A stretch of DNA of 64,000 nt from assembly GCA_040006715.1 (NCBI GenBank), contig JBDTWL010000011.1, forward strand, positions 3,728-67,727, given 5' to 3'. The position numbers were made by a program, and so were the translations under genes. The DNA is from Ferruginibacter sp. GTDB taxonomy: Bacteria > Bacteroidota > Bacteroidia > Chitinophagales > Chitinophagaceae. Each line of letters begins with the position of its first letter. Position 1 is the first letter of the stretch. A model generated the notes under the pieces. That model ran no database searches. It was not told the origin of the DNA and saw nothing but the letters and a program-made list of their open reading frames with translations. Shown here piece by piece: positions 6,249-16,908 of this stretch.

Positions 6249-9200
6249 CTATTTCCCTGTTATCCAATAATCCCTGGGATAGATACGGTATAGTTTTGTA
6301 TCGCTGCCCTCAACAGATTGCAGGTATGCTTCGTAGGCAGTCATTTGTTTTTCATTACCAATAACGTAAAAGATGCCTCCTTCCACATCTTTGGATTTAA
6401 TCCCATAGCCCGGGAGTATCTTCTCATAAACAATATCTTTTCTCTTATATAATTCTTCAACAAGGTTTGGCATCTTCCTTAACTCCAGTATTCCGGAACG
6501 AAAATGCCTGATCACGTCCGGTGTGTATCCATCTGTAATATCTGCAGCCATGGCTTCTACCCTTCCTTCATAATCATTTGCCGCACGGGTACGGAATGCA
6601 CCGGCGATCACATACTCACCAAGGCTTGGATCGACCGGGGATCTTTTTATTTCATCAATTACAAAACGAAGTGTTTGAGGCAGTTCCGGTGTGCGTTCTG
6701 CATAATAATTGAACAGCCCGGCTCCTAAACTCGTACCAACACCTGTGCTATAAGATAATCCGGCTCCCGTGGTCTTGGTATAAACACTTTGCTTGCCGCC
6801 GCCTCCATAAAGGCCAGCCGCTAAAAACCGAAGCAGGCTTTCCCTGTTCGTTTCATTATAGGAAACAAGTTTTGCAGAATTCATAAAAACCCCTGTTTGG
6901 GAATTTGGGTTCATCAAACCCACAAAGACGGGCTTTTGAGTTGTTGCCAGCCTTGCCTTCACCCGTTCATCAACAAGATCTTTATTTCCATAAGAAACTT
7001 TTACAAGCACTGAATTATCAAGACCACTTACAAGTGACAGGATATCATTATTGAGTTTTTGCTGTGTTGAACCGGAGGAGACCATGAACATCCTGGCCGC
7101 CCCTTTTTTCATTATACTTTTACGCAGGGCCTCCAGTTCAGCCAATGTTCTTTCGGGACCTTTGGAAAGATCTTTGCTCATTTGATCACATAAATAAGCC
7201 CAGTCCTGCTGCAAAGAATTATCAGGGATATCATTTAATACCTGCTCCAGGTCTTTGGAAGCATCCCCCGCTATTTGTTTAGCGGTGACAGGCAATTCAT
7301 TAAAAGCTGTTATAACATCCTTTAAATTATCGGGCACCAATGAAGTTTTCGATGTATCGCTTTGCAAAGCGCCAAGCAGGTTTTTGCGTTCATCACGGCT
7401 ACCTGTAACTGTTGACAATTCTTTTAAAAATGCTGTTATACTTTTTGTAGTGGCCTCATCACCTGCATCTTTCAGCATCCATTTTAACCGGAAGATATTG
7501 TGCGACCTGGTCAAAAATGAAGTTGTGGATAGTAATAGCGGGTTCTGCTGGCTCATATAAGCGGTTTTTGGATCGCTTACCCAATCTTCTTCGGCACCCT
7601 GCATTTTTTTTCTGATAGCCGCCAGGTTTTGGTCCACAAGGTCCCGGATACGTGAAAGGTTCTCTTTACTCCAATTTGGATGCTGCAGAATAAGTGTCAT
7701 CCATTTTATGGCCCTTTGAGCTTCATCAACATTATTGCCCGAGCCCTTCACAAGCAATTCTGCACGGCCGGTACTAAAATTTGTGCTGTAGCTGCATTGC
7801 AGGGCTAATATCTCCTGCCGTAACAATTCAGTCATAGTTTCATAATCGATGGCCTTACCATCTTTGATCACACCGGTTTCCCGTATAAGTTCAGGAAGGA
7901 TGGCAAGGTAAACCAATTGATCTTCCCTCGTACCATCCAGTTTCAACGCGATCCCGGTCGTAGCGCTTGTCATATTATTGAAGGTCGCTTCCAGCATGTT
8001 TATGTTGCCAGGCAATACCGTTTTTTTGAAATCAAGTTCATCATCCAGTGTCAAAGGAGGATTGTCGATGAATTTTATGATATGGGATTGCTCTGCTTTC
8101 TCAAGTATCGCAGTATTGTTATCATACTCAGCCTTGTATTTAAGGATAGCAGCCTGGTCATCAGCAACATTGTATTTTATCTTTAACCTTGCTATTTCTT
8201 CTTTTACCCGGTCCTTGCGGTCTGCTTCATTTTTATCGATCAGGGCTGCGCTGGCCTTGGTTATAACAGCATAAGGCGTAACGGTTGTAAGTTTCCAGGT
8301 TGCCAGGTAATCTTTCCAGAAATTTTTGCCGGTAGCAAGGAGTACTTCGATCTCATCAAACTGGGGTTTGAGGATGATCGATCTACGGAAGCTTTTTATC
8401 TTACTCATTTCATCCAACTGGGAATACCAGGAATCATATGTATTCCTAAAGCCGAATTTTGGAGGTGTATTTACAAATTTTGCAAGGTTGCGTTTTGTAT
8501 CGGTCAGGCTGTTCCTGAACCTGTTGTTGAATTCCTTTAATTCAGGTGAATTGTCTTTAAATGAGGCTATGCGTAACAGCTCGTTCATTATTTTTTGTCG
8601 TACCAGTTCAGCTTTTTCTGTTGTAAGGTTAGCCGACGCAATATCATCCACTCCTATAAATACCGGCTGTCCCATGTTATCATCAACATAGCCGTATATA
8701 CTTTGTGCCCCCAGGTCAATTTCACGCGTCTTACTGTCAATGAATTTTTTGTACAAATTCGTATTTGCATCGCCGGCAAAGACCGACATAAAATTTGCAA
8801 GCAACAATTCTTCTGTAGCATTCAATTGGCGTTCGGCAGGAAATGTAAACAACATATTTCCGGGGCCCTGCTCGTTCTTGCCGGGGTAATCTGCCACAAC
8901 GATCTTACCCGCTTCAGCCGGTTGCGGAGGAGGCAACTTTAATTTTTGGGCCCTGGCATGTTTTGCAGGATCGGGATCAAGCCTGTTTAAGATAATGTTT
9001 GTTTCTGCAAGTATGTCTGCGAGCGCCATTGTCCTGGGTAAGGAAGTAATGGCTCCCATGTTCCACAGGTAATAATTTGCATCATGAAAATGCTGGATCT
9101 CTGCAGGGCCCAACTCACGTATCCCTGCCGGGTCACCACCCGCATTAAAAGAAAGCGGGTGCGCATTCCCGTATACTAACCGGCCCATTTTGTCGTATAG

Positions 9201-9827
9201 TTGTGAATAGGGATTGGTCATACTGGTAGTCATCTCATTGTATACAGAACCCTTTTCTTCTATTTTCAATGTTTTATCGGGGTTTTCAGATACACCCCAG
9301 TTACGCACTTCACGGTTCACTTCTTCTGCCGTATAATCAGGGTAGAGCAGCGCATCCAGGTACTTTTCAAATAAGTTGTAAAACACTTTCACACCTGCGC
9401 CTGTATAAAAATTATACGCAGTGTGTAATTGTGAAGTAAATGCATTTGAAACCGCAAGCGACATACCTTCCCTGGTATTTAATTCATGTCCCTTGTTCCC
9501 TTTGGTTATCAGCAGGTGTTCCTGGGTATGAGGCTCCCCCTTACCAGAGACCGGGAAAGTATTCACCCAAATAAATGTCTGCGGAACTGATTCTATTTGC
9601 AAAAGATCAAGTGTAAACCCTGTACGCTCATGAATGAAACGCCCTCCCATTGGCTGGCCGGCATCATTTAAATAAACAGCAATAGCACTGAAGCCATTTA
9701 ATTTTTGCCCTTCAGTAAGATCTGAAAGGGAAATCGTTTTAAGCTGGGCATGGAGGGTATTGAATGCCATAAAAAAGAAGGAAATGTAGAGGCCAACCCA
9801 AATGAGCATTTTCTTTTTAAAATTCAT
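6249..9827 (-). CDS. Exported M16 (insulinase/presequence-protease-like) zinc metallopeptidase
   Basis: Inverted zinc motif HTQEH, EKGSVYNEM (cf. KGVVYNEM of PreP/Cym1), signal peptide, 1192 aa. Confidence 0.8.
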   Translation of the reverse strand: MNFKKKMLIWVGLYISFFFMAFNTLHAQLKTISLSDLTEGQKLNGFSAIAVYLNDAGQPMGGRFIHERTGFTLDLLQIESVPQTFIWVNTFPVSGKGEPHTQEHLLITKGNKGHELNTREGMSLAVSNAFTSQLHTAYNFYTGAGVKVFYNLFEKYLDALLYPDYTAEEVNREVRNWGVSENPDKTLKIEEKGSVYNEMTTSMTNPYSQLYDKMGRLVYGNAHPLSFNAGGDPAGIRELGPAEIQHFHDANYYLWNMGAITSLPRTMALADILAETNIILNRLDPDPAKHARAQKLKLPPPQPAEAGKIVVADYPGKNEQGPGNMLFTFPAERQLNATEELLLANFMSVFAGDANTNLYKKFIDSKTREIDLGAQSIYGYVDDNMGQPVFIGVDDIASANLTTEKAELVRQKIMNELLRIASFKDNSPELKEFNNRFRNSLTDTKRNLAKFVNTPPKFGFRNTYDSWYSQLDEMSKIKSFRRSIILKPQFDEIEVLLATGKNFWKDYLATWKLTTVTPYAVITKASAALIDKNEADRKDRVKEEIARLKIKYNVADDQAAILKYKAEYDNNTAILEKAEQSHIIKFIDNPPLTLDDELDFKKTVLPGNINMLEATFNNMTSATTGIALKLDGTREDQLVYLAILPELIRETGVIKDGKAIDYETMTELLRQEILALQCSYSTNFSTGRAELLVKGSGNNVDEAQRAIKWMTLILQHPNWSKENLSRIRDLVDQNLAAIRKKMQGAEEDWVSDPKTAYMSQQNPLLLSTTSFLTRSHNIFRLKWMLKDAGDEATTKSITAFLKELSTVTGSRDERKNLLGALQSDTSKTSLVPDNLKDVITAFNELPVTAKQIAGDASKDLEQVLNDIPDNSLQQDWAYLCDQMSKDLSKGPERTLAELEALRKSIMKKGAARMFMVSSGSTQQKLNNDILSLVSGLDNSVLVKVSYGNKDLVDERVKARLATTQKPVFVGLMNPNSQTGVFMNSAKLVSYNETNRESLLRFLAAGLYGGGGKQSVYTKTTGAGLSYSTGVGTSLGAGLFNYYAERTPELPQTLRFVIDEIKRSPVDPSLGEYVIAGAFRTRAANDYEGRVEAMAADITDGYTPDVIRHFRSGILELRKMPNLVEELYKRKDIVYEKILPGYGIKSKDVEGGIFYVIGNEKQMTAYEAYLQSVEGSDTKLYRIYPRDYWITGK

Positions 9828-10054: not shown

Positions 10055-10062
10055 TATATTTG
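10055..10062 (+). promoter_or_regulatory. Bacteroidota -7 promoter box
   Basis: TATATTTG matches TAnnTTTG, upstream of the 10117 ORF. Confidence 0.6.
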
Positions 10063-10116
10063 CAACATTATTTCGAATATATTAATTTACTTTACTAAAA
10101 TGAATTATACAATTCT

Positions 10117-10452
10117 TTGTTAAGGTCTGTGTACATAATAAGGTTTCTAGCATGTTTAATGCTGGTCGTTTTTGCAATAAGCATTACGCCAAAAAGGGTT
10201 TTGCATGATGTGTTTGCAAAACATATAGACAACAAGTCTCTAAAAAACAGTGATAGCCCCTACCAGTTCTCAAATTCAGGATATAATTGCGATAATGATA
10301 ACCTCGTAGCAGAATCCAATTTTGTAAGTGACCAACAGGTATTCTCTGTTCCCGTATTCATTTCATTTCCTGCCAATATCCAAAAAGATATTTCTTTCTC
10401 CACCAAACCTGGGATCTATTCAGCACTGCGTGGCCCTCCGGTAAATATTTAG
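10117..10452 (+). CDS. Candidate leader/arrest peptide with signal anchor, His/Cys and C-terminal RGPP
   Basis: TTG start, hydrophobic N-terminus, HDVFAKH and NCD, ends LRGPPVNI; directly upstream of the metal-uptake genes. Confidence 0.7.
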   Translation: MLRSVYIIRFLACLMLVVFAISITPKRVLHDVFAKHIDNKSLKNSDSPYQFSNSGYNCDNDNLVAESNFVSDQQVFSVPVFISFPANIQKDISFSTKPGIYSALRGPPVNI

Positions 10453-10509
10453 TTTGATAAGATGTTGTGACATCTGTGCAACTTATTTTTTCAAAAAATA
10501 AATATTCCC

Positions 10510-11664
10510 GTGAACATTATATCCAAAAAGATAATTGTTGTGGCCCTGTTACTGGCGGCCCTTTCTTTCAGCAATAAGACCTTTGCGCAAATTGACAGCA
10601 CAGGCACTGCAGATTCTCTCCTGCTTAAACAGGTAGAAATGCAAATGCAAACAAGCACCCAGCCTGCACCACAGCAAAGCCGCTCAGGCATTTCAGCTAA
10701 CCCGGATATTGGTGCTGTTGCTGATTTCCGTGGATCCTATACCAGCCAGGGCAAGAAGAATTTTGATGCTTACCTGAACGAGACAGAGGTCTCATTTCAA
10801 TCTGTAGTTGATCCTTACATAAGGGCAGACATTTTTGTTTCATTCAGCAGGGATGCTGAGACGCATAAATATGGAGTAGAAATTGAAGAAGGTTATCTTA
10901 CCACACTTTCCCTTCCCGCAAAATTGCAATTGAAAGTAGGGAAATTCAGGGAAGCAGCAGGAAAAATAAACCCCGTGCATCCTCATGCGCTCCCCTTCAT
11001 TGACCTGCCCAATGCCTACGTTAATTATTTTGGTGAAGAAGGCCTCAATGATGAAGGTGCTTCGCTGAGCTGGCTTTTACCAAATAAAAAATTTTACCAG
11101 GAATTCATTTTACAGGCTACCGCAGGGGCCGGTGAATCCCCAAGTTTTAAAAGAGCAACTGATAACCGTTTTGTTTACCTGGGTCATCTTAAAAACTTCT
11201 TTACGCTGAGTGATAATGCAACATTGGAATTGGGCCTGACAGGGATCACGGGCCCCAATGATTCTTCACACAATACAAATATTGCTGCGGCTGATATCAC
11301 TTATAAGTGGAAGCCCCTTCAAATGAATACTTACCGGTCATTGACCTGGCAGTCTGAATTTTTTTACAGCAATGCAAAGTACACGATACCTGGGGCAACA
11401 AACAGCTTCGGGTTTTATTCATTTTTAGAATACCAGCTTGCCAAGCGCTGGTTTTTAACCGGCAGGTATGATTATGCTCAAAAGCCATATGATAAAAATA
11501 TCGTCGAACAGGCTTATTCACTGAGTGCAGGCTGGCTGGCATCTGAGTTTCAGAAAATAGAATTTGAAGGTAAATTAACCAATCAAAGTATTCAATCTGC
11601 ATACAACCAATTCTGGCTGCGCTGGATCTTCGTGATCGGCGCACATGGCGCTCACCAGTATTAG
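10510..11664 (+). CDS. Outer-membrane beta-barrel associated with metal uptake
   Basis: Signal peptide, NPDIG, amphipathic strands, C-terminal WIFVIGAHGAHQY; upstream of the metal-binding protein gene. Confidence 0.75.
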   Translation: MNIISKKIIVVALLLAALSFSNKTFAQIDSTGTADSLLLKQVEMQMQTSTQPAPQQSRSGISANPDIGAVADFRGSYTSQGKKNFDAYLNETEVSFQSVVDPYIRADIFVSFSRDAETHKYGVEIEEGYLTTLSLPAKLQLKVGKFREAAGKINPVHPHALPFIDLPNAYVNYFGEEGLNDEGASLSWLLPNKKFYQEFILQATAGAGESPSFKRATDNRFVYLGHLKNFFTLSDNATLELGLTGITGPNDSSHNTNIAAADITYKWKPLQMNTYRSLTWQSEFFYSNAKYTIPGATNSFGFYSFLEYQLAKRWFLTGRYDYAQKPYDKNIVEQAYSLSAGWLASEFQKIEFEGKLTNQSIQSAYNQFWLRWIFVIGAHGAHQY

Positions 11665-11790: not shown

Positions 11791-12693
11791 ATGAAAAAAA
11801 CAATTTCAATTTTTGCAACGCTGCTGGTAATTGTTACAGTAGCTGGTGCAGGTCCCATAAAAGTCGTTACCACCACCACCGATATGCGGAGCATTGCGGA
11901 AATGATCGGGGGAAATAAAGTTTCAGTAACATCGATCGCTACGGGCTATCAAAATCCGCACTTTGTAGATCCCAAGCCAAGCTATATCATCAGCCTTTCC
12001 AATGCGGATCTTTTTGTAACGGTGGGGCTTGACCTGGAAACAGGCTGGTCGCCACAATTACTAACCAGTTCCCGAAATCCCAAAATACAAAAAGGGTCAG
12101 TTGGTTATGTTGATGCATCCGAAGGAGTGGGTTTATTACAGGTTCCTTCTTCTGTTAACCGCGGTGAAGGCGATATTCATATTTATGGAAACCCGCATTA
12201 CTGGCTTGACCCCTTGAATGGAAAGGTCATTGCAAGGAATATTGCCAATGGTTTGGAAAAAATTGACCCGGCCAATAGATCTTTTTATGAAGCCAATTTG
12301 TACGAATTTTTTACAAAGATCGACCTGAAATTAAAAGAATGGGATGCTAAAATGGCACCATTCAAGGGAAGTAAGATCATTGCTTACCACAACGAATGGG
12401 TTTATTTTGAAAGAAGGTTTGGTTTACAGATCGTTGACTTTATGGAGCCAAAGCCCGGCATTCCGCCATCACCTTCACAACTGGTTAAAGTGATCAAAGA
12501 AGTAACGGCCAATAAAATAAAAGTGATCATTTCCTCCCCTTATTTCACCACTTCATCATCGGATGTTGTTGCAAAGCAAACAGGCGTAAAAGAATTAACG
12601 CTTGCTACTTCAACAGCTGCATTCAGCAGTATCAAAAATTATTTCGAGCTGTTTGATTATGATGTGGACCAGTTGGTAGCAGTACTTAAATAA
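11791..12693 (+). CDS. Metal ABC transporter substrate-binding protein (ZnuA/TroA/MntA family)
   Basis: NPHFVDPKPS, GNPHYWLDP and YHNEW motifs. Confidence 0.92.
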   Translation: MKKTISIFATLLVIVTVAGAGPIKVVTTTTDMRSIAEMIGGNKVSVTSIATGYQNPHFVDPKPSYIISLSNADLFVTVGLDLETGWSPQLLTSSRNPKIQKGSVGYVDASEGVGLLQVPSSVNRGEGDIHIYGNPHYWLDPLNGKVIARNIANGLEKIDPANRSFYEANLYEFFTKIDLKLKEWDAKMAPFKGSKIIAYHNEWVYFERRFGLQIVDFMEPKPGIPPSPSQLVKVIKEVTANKIKVIISSPYFTTSSSDVVAKQTGVKELTLATSTAAFSSIKNYFELFDYDVDQLVAVLK

Positions 12694-12740: not shown

Positions 12741-13583
12741 ATGTTTGAAATGTTTAACCTTCCGTTCATGCTCCAGGCCTTTGCTGCTGCTGTCATCACC
12801 GGGGTCTTGTTATCCTATTTAGGCGTTCATGTTGTGGGCAGGGGGATTGTTTTCGTGGACCTTGCACTGGGCCAGATATCTTCATTGGGAGTGGCTTTTG
12901 CAGCATTCATTGGCACAGGACTCACATCCATTCCGCTGATATTTACCTTATCAGGCGCTTTACTGATGTCATTCATCAATATTAGGGATAAGCGCTTAAA
13001 GCAGGAAGCGATCATTGGAATATTATATGCTTTCGCATCAGCAATAACGGTATTGTTGATCTCCAAAACAGCGCATGGGGATTCTGATATACAGGAAGTG
13101 CTTTTCGGAAATATTTTGTCAGTAAGCTGGCAGCAGATCACAACAATAGGAATGGTTTTCAGTGCCATCCTGCTTGTCCAGTTAATTTTCTTCCGGAAAT
13201 TCTTTGCGTTGACCGAATCATTTGAAAACGGCGTAAATCATCTTATAGGGATCTTCAATATCTGGAATTTCCTTTTTTATATTTCCATTGGTCTGGCCAT
13301 AGTTTTTGCGGTCAAAATAAACGGGGTCATCCCGGTCTTTGCTTATTTGATCATCCCTGCAGTATCGGCGATCATGCTTACAAAAAATAAAGGGGCTGTT
13401 TTAATAATTGCGATCATCATCAGTATTCTGGGAGGCTTCTTTGGATTGAATTTTTCATTTCATTATGATTTTCCTGCAGGTTCATCTATTGTAGTGGTCC
13501 TGGGTGGCATTTTTATATTGGCATCTGTTTACAGGATCATCAGGGGTATCACCGGTAAAAAACCAATGGAAGAGGCAGTGTAA
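12741..13583 (+). CDS. Metal ABC transporter permease (ZnuB/MntB, ABC-3 family)
   Basis: LGVHVVGRGIVFVDLALGQ, LFGNIL and IIPAVSA motifs; multi-pass membrane protein. Confidence 0.92.
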   Translation: MFEMFNLPFMLQAFAAAVITGVLLSYLGVHVVGRGIVFVDLALGQISSLGVAFAAFIGTGLTSIPLIFTLSGALLMSFINIRDKRLKQEAIIGILYAFASAITVLLISKTAHGDSDIQEVLFGNILSVSWQQITTIGMVFSAILLVQLIFFRKFFALTESFENGVNHLIGIFNIWNFLFYISIGLAIVFAVKINGVIPVFAYLIIPAVSAIMLTKNKGAVLIIAIIISILGGFFGLNFSFHYDFPAGSSIVVVLGGIFILASVYRIIRGITGKKPMEEAV

Positions 13584-13619: not shown

Positions 13620-14606
13620 TCATGCGGGATTGCCTTCGCCCGGTTTTTCCTGTGCTTCGATCACTGTTTTGTGCTCGGGCTGCTGTTGAATCGATCTTTC
13701 TGATTCTACCTCGATCTCCTGCACCCATACGGCATAGTTATTAGGATATATTTTTGACCCGGCATGTGCAGCATATACATGGGTAAATACAGCTCCGAAA
13801 TACAAGATCATGGCAGAATAATAGACCCATAACAGCAGGACAATGGCAGATCCCGCAGTTCCATAAGTTGAGGAAAGCTGGCTATGTCCCAAATAATAAC
13901 CGATCAGGAATTTACCTGCCATAAATAACGTTGCCGTGGTAAAAGCCCCTGCCCTTACATGCCTCCATCGTATCCGGGCATCCGGCAATACTTTAAAGAT
14001 CATTCCGAATAACAACGAAGTGATGACAAAGGTCAGTAGCAGGTTAAACGCATATACCATTATGACCGTTAATTCCGGGAACATGCGGGTAAGCCGGTGG
14101 ATGATCAGGTCCATTGCACCATTGATCATCAGGGATACCAACAATATAAATCCCAGGCTTACTACCAATGAAAAAGAAAGGAGCCTGTTAATGAGCATTT
14201 TCAATATCCCCTTTCCTTTACGCGGTTTGGCTTTTAATTTCCAGATATGATTGATGGAATCCTGTATCTCACTAAAAACACTGGTAGCACCGATCAATAA
14301 GGTAATAACGCCTACCATTGTGGCAAAGTTGCTGTTTTGAGATACCGCCGCATTGCGGATCGTTTGTTGTATCTGCAGGGCTGCATCCGCTCCCACAAAA
14401 CCGGATATCTGGTGATATAATGTTCCCTCGATCGCTTCCCTGCCATAAAATATATCACTAACAGAAATAATAATGATGAGCATGGCCGGTAAGGAGAAAA
14501 TAGTATAGAAGGCAAGTGCAGCACTTAGCTTCAGCACTTTATTATCTATAAAATCAGAAAATGATTGTTTAATGATCGTCCAGCTATTTTTAAATCCTGA
14601 TTTCAT
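13620..14606 (-). CDS. YihY/virulence factor BrkB family membrane protein
   Basis: AALAFYTIFSLP, FKVLPD, YGTAGS and LLWVYYSAMILYFGA motifs. Confidence 0.93.
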   Translation of the reverse strand: MKSGFKNSWTIIKQSFSDFIDNKVLKLSAALAFYTIFSLPAMLIIIISVSDIFYGREAIEGTLYHQISGFVGADAALQIQQTIRNAAVSQNSNFATMVGVITLLIGATSVFSEIQDSINHIWKLKAKPRKGKGILKMLINRLLSFSLVVSLGFILLVSLMINGAMDLIIHRLTRMFPELTVIMVYAFNLLLTFVITSLLFGMIFKVLPDARIRWRHVRAGAFTTATLFMAGKFLIGYYLGHSQLSSTYGTAGSAIVLLLWVYYSAMILYFGAVFTHVYAAHAGSKIYPNNYAVWVQEIEVESERSIQQQPEHKTVIEAQEKPGEGNPA

Positions 14607-14721: not shown

Positions 14722-15690
14722 TTGAAAAGGTTCCTCTTAGCTTCCGGTTATTTCATTTCTCTTTCTTTCTTATTTAATTCAAGATCCTTTGCCCAGGACC
14801 AAAAGCGTGATACGGTTAGTGTAGGTATTTACGTTACGAGTATCCACGACATTGATTTTAAGCAAAAAGAATATACCATTACTTTCTGGCTATGGTTAAA
14901 GTATAAGAATAAGTCCTTTGATTTTGAAAGAAACCTGGAAATACCCCAGGCGAAAACAATTTTAAAATCATTTCCTACAACAGACACGACAGGCGGTAAC
15001 ATCAGCATGCTGATGAAATTGCAGTGTGTAATGAAAGATTCCTGGAAGATAACCAGCTTTCCTTTTGACCGCCAGAAATTAAGGCTCTCCTTTGAGAATT
15101 CACAGTTTGATACCCGGTCATTGATCTTTGTTGCAGATACACCTGGTAAACACTATGGACGCTTTACGATCAATGGCTGGCTCATCGACAGTTTCAATAT
15201 TTCGATTGATAAAAAACTCTATGAAACAGCTTTTGGAGATGATAGCCTGGAAGAACCAAGATCGGAATACAGCGCATTCAGGGTAAACATAGGAATTGAG
15301 CGAACAGGCCCCTGGAGCCTTTTTCTAAAAATATTCCTCGGTATGTATGTGGCTTTCCTGATTTCATATGTATGCTTTTATATTCATGCTGACAGCATAG
15401 ACGCACGCTTTGGGTTAAGCGTAGGCTCTTTATTTGCAGTGATCGGCAACAAATACATTGTTGATTCTGCATTGCCCGACACAGCTGCAATTGGGTTAGT
15501 TGATACCCTGCATGGCCTTACTTTGCTCTGTATATTTATCGTGATCGCCTGCACCACTTATGCTTTAAGGCTTGCCAAAATAAATAAAATAAAACAAGCC
15601 AACAGGTTTGATATGATCAGCGCCCAGGTATTGTTGCTTGTTTATGTTATACTGAATATTTATTTTATTTCACAGGCAAATATGGGTTGA
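14722..15690 (+). CDS. Pentameric ligand-gated ion channel homolog (GLIC/ELIC-like)
   Basis: TTG start, signal peptide, V.VGIY...I.DID, FWLW, FPFDRQ Pro-loop, four C-terminal TM helices. Confidence 0.85.
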   Translation: MKRFLLASGYFISLSFLFNSRSFAQDQKRDTVSVGIYVTSIHDIDFKQKEYTITFWLWLKYKNKSFDFERNLEIPQAKTILKSFPTTDTTGGNISMLMKLQCVMKDSWKITSFPFDRQKLRLSFENSQFDTRSLIFVADTPGKHYGRFTINGWLIDSFNISIDKKLYETAFGDDSLEEPRSEYSAFRVNIGIERTGPWSLFLKIFLGMYVAFLISYVCFYIHADSIDARFGLSVGSLFAVIGNKYIVDSALPDTAAIGLVDTLHGLTLLCIFIVIACTTYALRLAKINKIKQANRFDMISAQVLLLVYVILNIYFISQANMG

Positions 15691-15702
15691 GAAATTTAAG
15701 TA

Positions 15703-16908
15703 ATGAAAATGAACAAAAAGACTTTATGCATCACTTTAATACTACTCGGATCCGTTATTTTTTTATCACAGTGTATCAATAAGACCGAAGCATTCAATGA
15801 TAACAGGGGAAAGGCTTATGCCGGTTCAGCCAGCTGCAGGCAATGCCACCAGGCCATTTATGATTCCGCCTTGCTAAGTGCACACTTCAATGCCACAGCG
15901 CCCGCTTCCAAAGAAAATGTACATGGTAATTTCAATGACGGAAAAAATGAATTTGTTTATAATAATGGAACAAAGGTTGTAATGGAAGAACGAGACAGCG
16001 GCCTTTACCAGGTTGTTTATGTAAATGGTAAAGAAAAGCAGGCTTACCGCTTTGATATTACATTCGGGTTAAGGAATGCACAGACCTGGCTATACTGGAA
16101 TGATGATAATACATATGAGTTGCCGGTATCCTGGTATACTTCGGTGCATGATTGGGCAACTAGCCCGGGCTTTTCTTCCAAAGATCCGGATTTTAAAAGA
16201 TTGATCGGCAGGGACTGTTTTGAATGCCATAGTTCGCATATCAGCAATAAACTGAATGCATCAACGGCAGGAATAACAGAAGTGCTGGTAAAAAACTCTA
16301 TCATTTATGGAATAGATTGTGAACGTTGCCATGGCCCGGCTGCAAACCACGTTAATTACCAGCTGGAATATCCCGGGATAAAAACAGCAAAATATATTAC
16401 TTTAAACCGCTCCCTAAACCAACTACAAAAATTGGATGCCTGTGCTTTATGCCATTCAGGAAATGATAAGTTGAAAATAGAGTCCAGGTTTAAATTCAGG
16501 CCCGGTGATACGCTTGCTAATTTCTTTATGACCCAATCAAACCATACCAACAGCAATGATTTTGATGTGCATGGAAACCAATACAGGCTGATGGCAGAAA
16601 GTAACTGTTTCCTTGGGAGTAAAAATATGAATTGTTCATCCTGCCATGATCCGCACAGGAATGCAAGCAATGACCTTGCATATTATTCGCAAAAATGTAT
16701 GGGCTGTCACAATGATGCCAGTCATGATTTTTGTCCTATGGCCGCTTCATTGGGAAATTCGATAAAAGAGAATTGTATTGATTGTCATATGCCCAAAAAG
16801 CCGTCGGAAGCTATAATCTTTCAAATGCAGGGGAGGTTTGAAAGATCTTCCTACCTGTTAAGAACACATCGGATCGCGATTTATGCCGCTGGAGAAATGA
16901 AAAAATAA
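15703..16908 (+). CDS. Exported multiheme cytochrome c (7 CxxCH)
   Basis: CRQCH, CFECH, CERCH, CALCH, CSSCH, CMGCH, CIDCH; N-terminal signal/lipoprotein-like peptide. Confidence 0.9.
   Translation: MKMNKKTLCITLILLGSVIFLSQCINKTEAFNDNRGKAYAGSASCRQCHQAIYDSALLSAHFNATAPASKENVHGNFNDGKNEFVYNNGTKVVMEERDSGLYQVVYVNGKEKQAYRFDITFGLRNAQTWLYWNDDNTYELPVSWYTSVHDWATSPGFSSKDPDFKRLIGRDCFECHSSHISNKLNASTAGITEVLVKNSIIYGIDCERCHGPAANHVNYQLEYPGIKTAKYITLNRSLNQLQKLDACALCHSGNDKLKIESRFKFRPGDTLANFFMTQSNHTNSNDFDVHGNQYRLMAESNCFLGSKNMNCSSCHDPHRNASNDLAYYSQKCMGCHNDASHDFCPMAASLGNSIKENCIDCHMPKKPSEAIIFQMQGRFERSSYLLRTHRIAIYAAGEMKK

Follow-up and report, generated by a model that had tools for sequence, protein, structure and literature searches.

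A candidate RGPP arrest-peptide leader with a start-codon helix ahead of a porin-ZnuA-ZnuB operon in a Ferruginibacter genome

Upstream of a porin-ZnuA-ZnuB operon in a 64,000-nucleotide (nt) stretch of a Ferruginibacter sp. genome (assembly GCA_040006715.1, contig JBDTWL010000011.1, positions 3,728 to 67,727 of the forward strand; hereafter the window, whose own numbering is used throughout, with features on its forward strand unless marked otherwise) lies a 111-codon open reading frame (ORF) that is probably a regulatory leader of the RAPP/RGPP arrest-peptide class. Its conserved C-terminal RGPP motif would stall the translating ribosome, and the stalled ribosome would in turn unmask the start codon of the porin gene. 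On comparative evidence, the leader is most likely a metal-sensing translational switch of the kind represented by CruR and CutF.

The leader (10117-10452) begins with TTG, where orthologues have ATG at the aligned first codon, encodes 111 amino acids (aa) and terminates in L-R-G-P-P-V-N-I, followed by a TAG stop (10450-10452). The RGPP codons (CGT GGC CCT CCG, 10429-10440) specify residues 105-108 of the 111, and a gap of 57 nt (10453-10509) separates the leader from the porin gene, whose GTG start lies at 10510; every coordinate that the initial annotation had assigned to the ORF, to the motif codons and to the gap checked out. Residues 1-23 (10117-10185) constitute a putative signal peptide or short signal anchor, in which R3 and R9 are followed by FLACLMLVVFAISI, and the A-x-S at the end of this segment may represent a cleavage site. 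The hydrophobic stretch formed by residues 10-23 (after R3 and R9) is conserved among the leader homologues, and AlphaFold2 (33 sequences) predicted a confident helix for residues 2-22 only (predicted local distance difference test, pLDDT, 80-89), both of which agree with the signal anchor that had been proposed. Past this helix the model contained no fold (pLDDT around 55), as expected of a nascent-chain regulator. The leader is present in a single copy in its own genome (3.95 Mb, 40.4% GC, 95% complete). The only existing gene call for this ORF, P0003, is a truncation to 80 aa (99% identity over 72% of the query), so that existing annotation misses the signal helix and the leader at its full length.

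A word-indexed search recovered 25 homologues of the leader (55-75% identity), and a profile search covering 1.84 billion cluster representatives enlarged the family to 783 representatives at 50% identity (E<=1e-3; 546 at E<=1e-10), nearly all of which are 95-140 aa long. The named relatives that carry the leader are Chitinophagaceae metagenome-assembled genomes. Within a sample of the window's own bacterial family the profile matched 145 of 401 genomes (68 of 151 genera), and in a phylum-wide sample the matches were nearly restricted to this family, with weak ones in two further families of its class. Neither Pfam nor NCBIfam had a model that matched the window leader or, even at E<=10, any of 33 members of the family. 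In particular, PF11162 (DUF2946) gave no match for the window leader (E<=0.1), for the 33 members (E<=10) or for the leader's own genome. The background cited in the initial annotation (CruR, DUF2946 and RAPP/RGPP arrest) is right; the leader itself is not a detectable DUF2946 member. Likewise, no model under the NCBI family name ‘HYC_CC_PP’ matched the leader, and a text search for this name returned no paper. The weakly matching leaders L098-L102 (belonging to another family of the same class) display TPW-x-LLHHH, CLIC (i.e. a CxxC) and LRGPP located two residues before the end, which hints at a possible evolutionary bridge, or continuum, between the family described here and the CruR-like CxxC leaders.

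Residue conservation, scored over 55 non-redundant leaders, revealed a signature consisting (in order) of the hydrophobic helix, a His block, a Cys block, a poorly conserved stretch and L-R-G-P-P. Eight residues (H30, H36, C58, V64 and R105-G106-P107-P108) are invariant in 55/55 leaders, and P25 (98%), K26 (95%), D38 (95%), G55 (98%) and L104 are each kept in 95-98% of them. The first conserved block (10183-10230), I-T-P-K-R-x-L-H30-x5-H36-x-D38, contains candidate metal ligands; the second (10276-10323) reads (S/A)G(Y/F)N-C58-x-(C/N)-D-N-L-V-A-E-S-x-F. At the latter position many relatives have C-x-C, the family consensus being C-x-(C/N)-D and the window sequence C58-D-N-D. The His/Cys residues to which attention had been drawn in this ORF (H30, H36 and C58) are thus both present and invariant across the family; C13, which sits in the signal helix, is not conserved. 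The distance from C58 to R105 is 46-48 residues in 55/55 loci (45-48 in 144 representatives), and despite this fixed length the spacer is the least conserved sequence of the leader. With a spacer of 46-48 residues, the Cys would by analogy have just emerged from the ribosomal tunnel when arrest occurs, at a point from which folding or pulling could be relayed to the peptidyl-transferase centre; the same tunnel-exit argument has been made for the 45-residue spacing of CruR (PMC9426467).

The RGPP motif, whose lack of conservation had been named beforehand as a finding that would speak against an arrest peptide, is present in 25/25 homologues, in 55/55 non-redundant loci and in 144 of the 150 best representatives at 50% identity (the six exceptions being mostly truncated or frameshifted calls), with LRGPP kept in relatives as distant as about 35% identity. 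It is conserved as amino acids and not as a nucleotide string, since every synonymous codon occurs (6 for Arg, 4 for Gly and 4 for Pro). The tail that follows it is short (2-11 residues, mostly 3; 3 in the window and in 34/55 loci) and hypervariable, with 39 different tails among 53 loci. Taken together, the codon-free conservation of RGPP, the hypervariable short tail and the fixed-length but variable spacer point to a regulatory nascent peptide, and not to a folded protein. Moreover, the motif is avoided elsewhere in the same genome: among its 2986 ORFs of at least 150 aa, RGPP and RAPP each occur 0 times (4.4 and 4.7 expected, respectively), as opposed to 7 occurrences of AGPP and 5 of AAPP. 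This avoidance matches the proteome-wide exclusion of RAPP/RGPP, which are the most robust, elongation factor P (EF-P)-refractory arrest cores (Fujiwara et al. 2025, PMC12992588). In the six-frame set of ORFs of at least 40 aa only seven carry RGPP or RAPP; two other small ORFs with a C-terminal R[GA]PP (contigs C17 and C3) were set aside as spurious-looking antisense frames, which leaves the leader as the sole credible carrier. KGPP is likewise found 0 times in the 2986 ORFs (8.5 expected). As CruR has been shown to arrest in vitro with the third and fourth RAPP codons occupying the P and A sites, respectively (PMC12992588), the P-site codon of the predicted stall on the window leader would be CCT (10435-10437) and the A-site codon CCG (10438-10440).

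The predicted stall site and the start of the porin gene are joined by an outer helix. Its left arm (10437-10457) spans the A-site codon, the V-N-I codons, the TAG stop and 5 nt beyond it; its right arm (10491-10513) spans positions -19 to -1 of the porin gene together with G1 and G3 of the GTG. In the minimum free energy (MFE) fold of 10420-10530 the paired left-arm segments are 10437-10441, 10444-10451 and 10453-10457, and the right-arm ones 10491-10495, 10499-10506, 10508-10510 and 10512-10513. Three of the pairings that had been pointed out from the sequence were recovered in this fold: AATATTTA (10444-10451) pairs along its whole length with its exact reverse complement, TAAATATT (10499-10506), TTTGA (10453-10457) pairs with TCAAA (10491-10495), and the CGG/CCG pairing is formed by C10439-G10510, G10440-C10509 and G10441-C10508. 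Two further pairs (C10438-G10512 and T10437-A10513) extend the helix, so that the first and third bases of the GTG start lie within it. The arm duplex of the window reaches -13.3 kcal/mol, compared to -6.5 for dinucleotide shuffles (z = -3.2, p = 0.004); without relatives, such statistics are suggestive and not decisive, and the main support for the helix comes from the orthologues.

An alignment of 18 intergenic regions (MAFFT, followed by RNAalifold) yielded no consensus pair, because the pairing register shifts between loci, and the helix was assessed with two alignment-free tests (i.e. the energy of the arm duplex against dinucleotide shuffles and a permutation of cognate against non-cognate arms). 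Over 26 non-redundant loci the cognate arms averaged -9.65 kcal/mol and the non-cognate ones -6.59, and 0 of 10000 permutations reached the observed value (p<1e-4). Against dinucleotide shuffles, 20 of 53 loci (38%) were significant at p<0.05, where 5% would be expected, with a mean z of -1.35. Kinship among the loci inflates the combined statistics, and the permutation is the more conservative of the two tests. The stem, whose conservation in orthologues the initial annotation had named as a check, held up structurally: covarying arms occur in the sub-branch of the window and in many distant loci, and are not universal (the significant 38% of the 53).

Helices of unrelated sequence share the same placement across genera. 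In L044, CATTACAATTTT (tail L-Q-F-stop) pairs with AAAATTGTAATG, ATG included; in L057 and L050, ATCAGTTAAT (A-I-S-stop) pairs with ATTGACTGAT; an AIS* tail pairs with TTGACTGATAA and an LKF* tail with TTAAAATTTTAA; in L012, TTAAAATTTTAATA pairs with TATTAAAATTTTAA; and in L013 and L024, ATTTAATTTA pairs with TAAATTAAAT. The covariation includes the stop codon, with TAG opposite CTA and TAA opposite TTA. Within the 24 strongest helices the median left arm starts 3.5 nt past the first base of the third RGPP codon, and the median right arm extends to +1 of the start codon (15/24 reach -3 or beyond). The footprint of a ribosome stalled at RGPP (about +1 to +15, i.e. about 10435-10450) coincides with the part of the left arm that pairs with -12 to +3 of the porin start, which agrees with the earlier proposal that such a ribosome would melt the lower stem. 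In a partition-function model, in which accessibility was taken as the mean unpaired probability of -18 to +6 and the footprint of the stalled ribosome was masked, the accessibility of the start rose from 0.13-0.37 to 0.45-0.62 in loci with strong helices.

On these grounds we propose the following sequence of events. Transcription of the operon would begin at a promoter that lies some 55 nt before the leader, and the N-terminal signal helix would target the nascent leader to the membrane. In free mRNA, 10437-10457 would pair with the 20 nt before the porin GTG and with its G1 and G3 (10491-10513) and thereby block initiation. Two reports (PMC6847099, PMC7797042) describe initiation in Bacteroidota as tuned by mRNA structure and not by Shine-Dalgarno pairing; since initiation of this kind needs an unstructured initiation region, a helix over the start codon should block it. 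The ribosome translating the leader would stall at R105-G-P-P108, its P site holding RGP-tRNA and its A site Pro-tRNA, and by covering about +1 to +15 it would displace the lower half of the helix, so that -12 to +3 is freed and the porin is translated, the translation of ZnuA and ZnuB following indirectly. H30, H36, D38 and C58 (at the fixed distance of 46-48 residues from the stall) may form a metal sensor on the nascent chain, and the binding of metal (probably zinc) would make the chain fold, or be pulled, and relieve the arrest. Translation would then terminate three codons further on, the helix would re-form and the operon would be off; the apo-peptide would correspond to the stalled state, with the operon on. 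As the targets are importers, we favour this polarity, which is the one of CruR.

The first of the putatively regulated genes (10510-11664) encodes a porin-like outer-membrane beta-barrel of 384 aa, with a GTG start and the C-terminus GAHGAHQY. It has no Pfam match of its own, and a search of the PDB sequences found nothing; its homologues (73-80% identity) carry PF07642 (BBP2/OmpL-like porin), and AlphaFold2 predicted a signal helix and about 14 beta strands with low-to-moderate confidence (pLDDT 57). It is followed by a ZnuA-family metal-binding protein of an ATP-binding cassette (ABC) importer (11791-12693; PF01297, E = 3.9e-56), for which the best NCBIfam match was AztC (97 bits against a cut-off of 350) and the best PDB match Synechocystis ZnuA (1PQ4/2OV1). 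Three His (in NPH, NPHYW and YHNEW) align with those of the latter, where we take them to be the zinc ligands; manganese-type binding proteins have Glu at the third position. Owing to this three-His site, zinc is the most likely cargo of the operon. The third gene (12741-13583) encodes a ZnuB/ABC-3 family permease (PF00950, E = 1.8e-41), which NCBIfam models describe as AztB/ZnuB-like at scores below their cut-offs. No gene for an ABC ATPase (ZnuC) was found in or adjoining the operon, and the ATPase must therefore be encoded elsewhere.

Throughout 53 loci the leader lies upstream of, and in the same direction as, outer-membrane uptake genes, at a gap of 53-198 nt, and what follows it is in every case a TonB-dependent receptor or the porin. 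The usual downstream gene is a TonB-dependent receptor (CarboxypepD_reg, Plug and barrel), as in 27 of 29 loci from other genera, and the arrangement with porin, ZnuA and ZnuB is that of the window's sub-branch. Among 20 porin-Znu operons in other genera, six have an R[GA]PP leader. L075 is a clear member of the window's leader family ahead of the porin, and L087 and L088 appear to be distant homologs. Different R[GA]PP leaders precede the porin in L078 (CSIC, GRGPPVI), L085 (DRGPPANIL) and L086 (DRAPPFLT), and these have been seen to combine a transmembrane helix, a His-rich stretch and CSIC. The same pairing between tail/stop and the sequence just 5' of the porin ATG recurs at least in L086 (TTAACATGAT/ATCATGTTAA) and L078 (GTAATCT/AGATTAC). 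As different R[GA]PP leaders stand before the same porin operon, the leader behaves as a portable regulatory module.

Several neighbouring genes were also recorded. A gene of about 151 aa follows both receptor-type and porin-Znu operons (7562-8014 in L002, 7589-8044 in L003, 4449-4904 in L004, 3539-3994 in L005 and 3532-3987 in L009) and is absent after the window operon; its copy in L002 matches DUF2721 (PF11026, E = 1.4e-35). Within the window, a BrkB/YihY-family gene (13620-14606, reverse strand) converges on the end of the operon after the permease. Divergent from the leader operon, 6249-9827 (reverse strand) encodes 1192 aa with an N-terminal signal-like segment and no Pfam match at E<=0.1. 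Further downstream, 14722-16908 holds two genes separated by 12 nt; the first encodes 322 aa that include a ligand-binding domain of neurotransmitter-gated ion channels (PF02931, E = 5e-8), the second a 401-aa multihaem cytochrome c (several CXXCH families).

Upstream of the leader, the candidate promoter -7 box TATATTTG (10055-10062) is contained in a conserved motif, TATATTTGCAACATTATTTCG (10055-10075), that is also a possible operator; the promoter role of TATATTTG would follow from the known Bacteroidota consensus. TAnnTTTG precedes the leader start by 55-63 nt, both in the window and in close orthologues. The possibility of an internal promoter within the gap was discarded, as no TAnnTTTG lies between RGPP and the downstream start in 53/53 loci; the presence of a -7 box before the leader and its absence from the 53 gaps are consistent with a single transcript. 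Motifs of the TTTGC[AT]A type are found within 130 nt upstream of the leader in 41/57 loci (background 0.067 per 145 nt). The promoter-proximal motif, TAnnTTTGCAAC-N3-GT(A/T)GCAA(A), is an imperfect palindrome that overlaps the Bacteroidota-type -7 box; it was also seen in L002, L004, L005, L010-L014, L025-L035 and L040-L066, and the window has a less palindromic variant, TTTGCAACATTATTTCG. As a candidate operator, this palindrome would add a second level of control, exerted on transcription; a scan of the leader's own genome with it pointed to no clear set of metal genes.

Enclosed by the outer helix is an inner hairpin region (10459-10489), with GATGT (10461-10465), ACATC (10470-10474) and a T-run (10485-10490). 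The GATGT/ACATC pairing listed in the initial annotation is absent from the MFE fold of the window, and a version of it is conserved in the orthologues, which have a GATGTT..AACATC hairpin (and covarying variants) followed some 10 nt later by a conserved ATTTTTT(A). The latter is often placed within a second AU-rich palindrome (TGTAAT-TTTTT-ATTACA, ATGTAT-TTTTT-ATACAT or TTATTTTTT-C-AAAAAATAA). Outer helix, inner hairpin and AU-rich palindrome together have a shape like that of a three-way junction. The gap had no Rfam match. It is AU-rich, with C and G at 16% each and without a C>G bubble, and no canonical intrinsic terminator was called in it; in some receptor-type loci the inner hairpin and T-run could still act as a terminator.

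A number of observations weigh against a metal-sensing arrest that unmasks the porin start. In the window, the fold of the whole 111 nt (10420-10530) is no better than that of shuffled sequences (z = -1.0), and in a set of 549 crude co-directional ORF pairs drawn from this genome the arm duplex ranks no higher than the top 4.6%. Across the family, 62% of the 53 loci (the close relatives L006, L007 and L008 included) have no significant pairing between stall site and start, as is the case for most loci with gaps above 100 nt, and the output may therefore differ across the family. The opening predicted for the window upon masking of the stalled footprint is modest (0.27 to 0.40), and a ribosome that simply terminates on the stop codon achieves an opening no smaller than this (0.55), from which it follows that arrest would act by prolonging the open state. 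Among the 20 porin-Znu operons of other genera, 12 lack such a leader and two more loci were not located. Furthermore, the pLDDT of about 55 extends over the candidate metal site, and the metal, the compartment and the polarity are guesses drawn from the downstream genes.

We weighed four other explanations. The first keeps the arrest and reverses its polarity, so that metal bound to the exported chain would prolong the stall and the operon would be on when metal is present. Rhodobacter CutF works in this way (its stem-loop covers the ribosome-binding site of the downstream gene), and the sequence itself fixes no polarity; we nonetheless regard it as unlikely, since the targets are importers, the induction of which by the imported metal would be counter-productive, and since CruR, which also controls an uptake receptor, has the opposite polarity. 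We consider just as unlikely a leader with a CruR-like output on transcription or mRNA stability, where the stalled ribosome would block Rho or a nuclease and the helix would be secondary. The gap of the window, being short, AU-rich and devoid of a called intrinsic terminator, speaks against it, and the overlap of the right arm with the start codon in 15/24 strong cases points to control of initiation. CruR itself acts by Rho-dependent termination in the intergenic region, and this explanation draws further support from the 62% of loci without a significant helix, from the many gaps of 100-198 nt and from the conserved inner hairpin and T-run; an output of this sort may still hold for family members without the helix.

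Plain translational coupling without programmed arrest, in which RGPP and the His/Cys residues would serve the mature protein (for instance as a periplasmic metal chaperone or receptor partner), would account for the model result that the start is opened no less by a ribosome on the stop codon than by a stalled one (0.55 vs 0.40), and for the well-conserved N-terminal half of the leader. It would leave aside that an invariant RGPP is followed by 2-11 hypervariable residues, that RGPP is excluded from the rest of the proteome and ranks among the strongest EF-P-refractory arrest cores (PMC12992588), that a spacer of 46-48 residues with fixed length and variable sequence is what one expects of a ruler in the tunnel, and not of a domain that folds, and that AlphaFold2 predicts no fold; we deem it improbable. 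A monitor of Sec/YidC export of the SecM/MifM/VemP type, which the initial annotation had left as an option on a par with metal sensing and whose classical layout (signal helix, C-terminal arrest motif and downstream helix) the leader shares, is very improbable, as no Sec or YidC component is found among the regulated genes in at least 60 loci and the invariant His/His/Asp/Cys at a fixed distance from the motif would have no role in it. None of these alternatives explains the invariant motif, the hypervariable tail, the ruler, the proteome avoidance and the covarying helix together as well as arrest coupled to unmasking of the start does.

That a nascent chain is arrested in order to sense a metal and unmask the porin start has precedents in its parts: CruR, CutF and the RAPP/RGPP arrest design are already known, as are CutF-like proteins in Bacteroidota and RGPP upstream ORFs (uORFs) before TonB-dependent receptors. 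What is new is the signature of the family, its ruler, the zinc-type operon and the covariation of a helix over the start codon in a phylum that does without Shine-Dalgarno pairing. In its most far-reaching form, which we put forward only tentatively, the leader would be the first zinc-responsive nascent-chain sensor, in which a His2-Asp-Cys site on an exported peptide, set 46-48 residues from the RGPP stall, reads periplasmic or cytoplasmic zinc, the stall unmasks a start without Shine-Dalgarno sequence and so turns a porin and Znu importer (or TonB-dependent receptors) on and off, and the whole acts as a portable module combined with a promoter-proximal operator, separate R[GA]PP leader families having come independently to head the porin-Znu operon. 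Metal uptake in Bacteroidota is usually credited to transcriptional repressors, and the locus would add a translational layer exerted through nascent peptides. The family is well defined and unannotated, has a sensor signature, a fixed ruler and an RNA helix open to compensatory mutation, and could help to answer whether RGPP arrests operate on Bacteroidota ribosomes and to show how initiation is gated without Shine-Dalgarno pairing; it bears, in addition, on whether arrest peptides can sense metals besides copper. One practical outcome could be a curated model, in Pfam or NCBIfam, for its ORFs, which at present are either without a name or not called at all.

One of the closest known systems is CruR (Bp2923, DUF2946/PF11162) of Bordetella pertussis, which precedes bfrG, a gene for a TonB-dependent transporter (Roy et al. 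2022, PMC9426467), which has been shown to arrest in vitro (PMC12992588) and in which a CXXC-RAPP spacing of 45 +/- 1-2 is functionally required (PMC9426467). Both are small exported leaders at the head of an outer-membrane metal-uptake operon, with the arrest motif three residues from the C-terminus and a comparable Cys spacing (45 +/- 2 in CruR and 46-48 here), and as both target uptake genes they probably share the polarity in which metal relieves the arrest. However, no sequence relation between them is detectable (0/33 members match PF11162 at E<=10). The window leader has H-x5-H-x-D and a single Cys (or C-x-C) where CruR has CXXC, and RGPP where CruR has RAPP; its gap is 57 nt long, AU-rich and contains a start-codon helix, whereas that of CruR is 162 nt long, GC-rich and contains a Rho-dependent terminator; and the probable metal is zinc, going by the downstream genes, in place of copper.

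The leader also falls within the definition of CutF-like proteins (Ozturk et al. 2023, PMC9973294), as it is shorter than 150 aa, has a signal, contains PP in its last 15 residues and precedes a same-strand gene by less than 1000 nt; the survey on which this definition rests lists many Bacteroidota members, TonB-type neighbours and non-copper clusters that have His only (PMC9973294). In Rhodobacter capsulatus CutF, as proposed here, an intergenic stem-loop hides the initiation region of the target and is opened by a paused ribosome. CutF itself is turned on by copper, carries CxxxC and governs a multicopper oxidase that serves detoxification, and its stem-loop hides a Shine-Dalgarno sequence, whereas the helix of the window pairs the start codon and its 5' flank and involves no Shine-Dalgarno sequence.

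With the RAPP/RGPP class (ApdA, ApdP and ApcA; PMC10987492, PMC12992588) the window leader has in common the C-terminal RGPP, the small secretory protein upstream of its target and the avoidance of the motif in the rest of the proteome. RGPP/RAPP uORFs are enriched upstream of genes for TonB-dependent receptors and metal homeostasis across Gram-negative phyla (PMC12992588). The characterised members have Sec/YidC targets or come from Actinomycetota/Pseudomonadota, and none of them belongs to Bacteroidota, precedes a zinc-type operon or has a family-specific sensor motif. Finally, in SecM-secA, MifM-yidC2 and VemP-secDF2 a stalled ribosome melts a helix that masks the initiation site of the next gene, as would be the case in the window; in contrast to these export monitors, the targets of the window leader are not export machinery, and the presumed release signal would be metal and not translocation.

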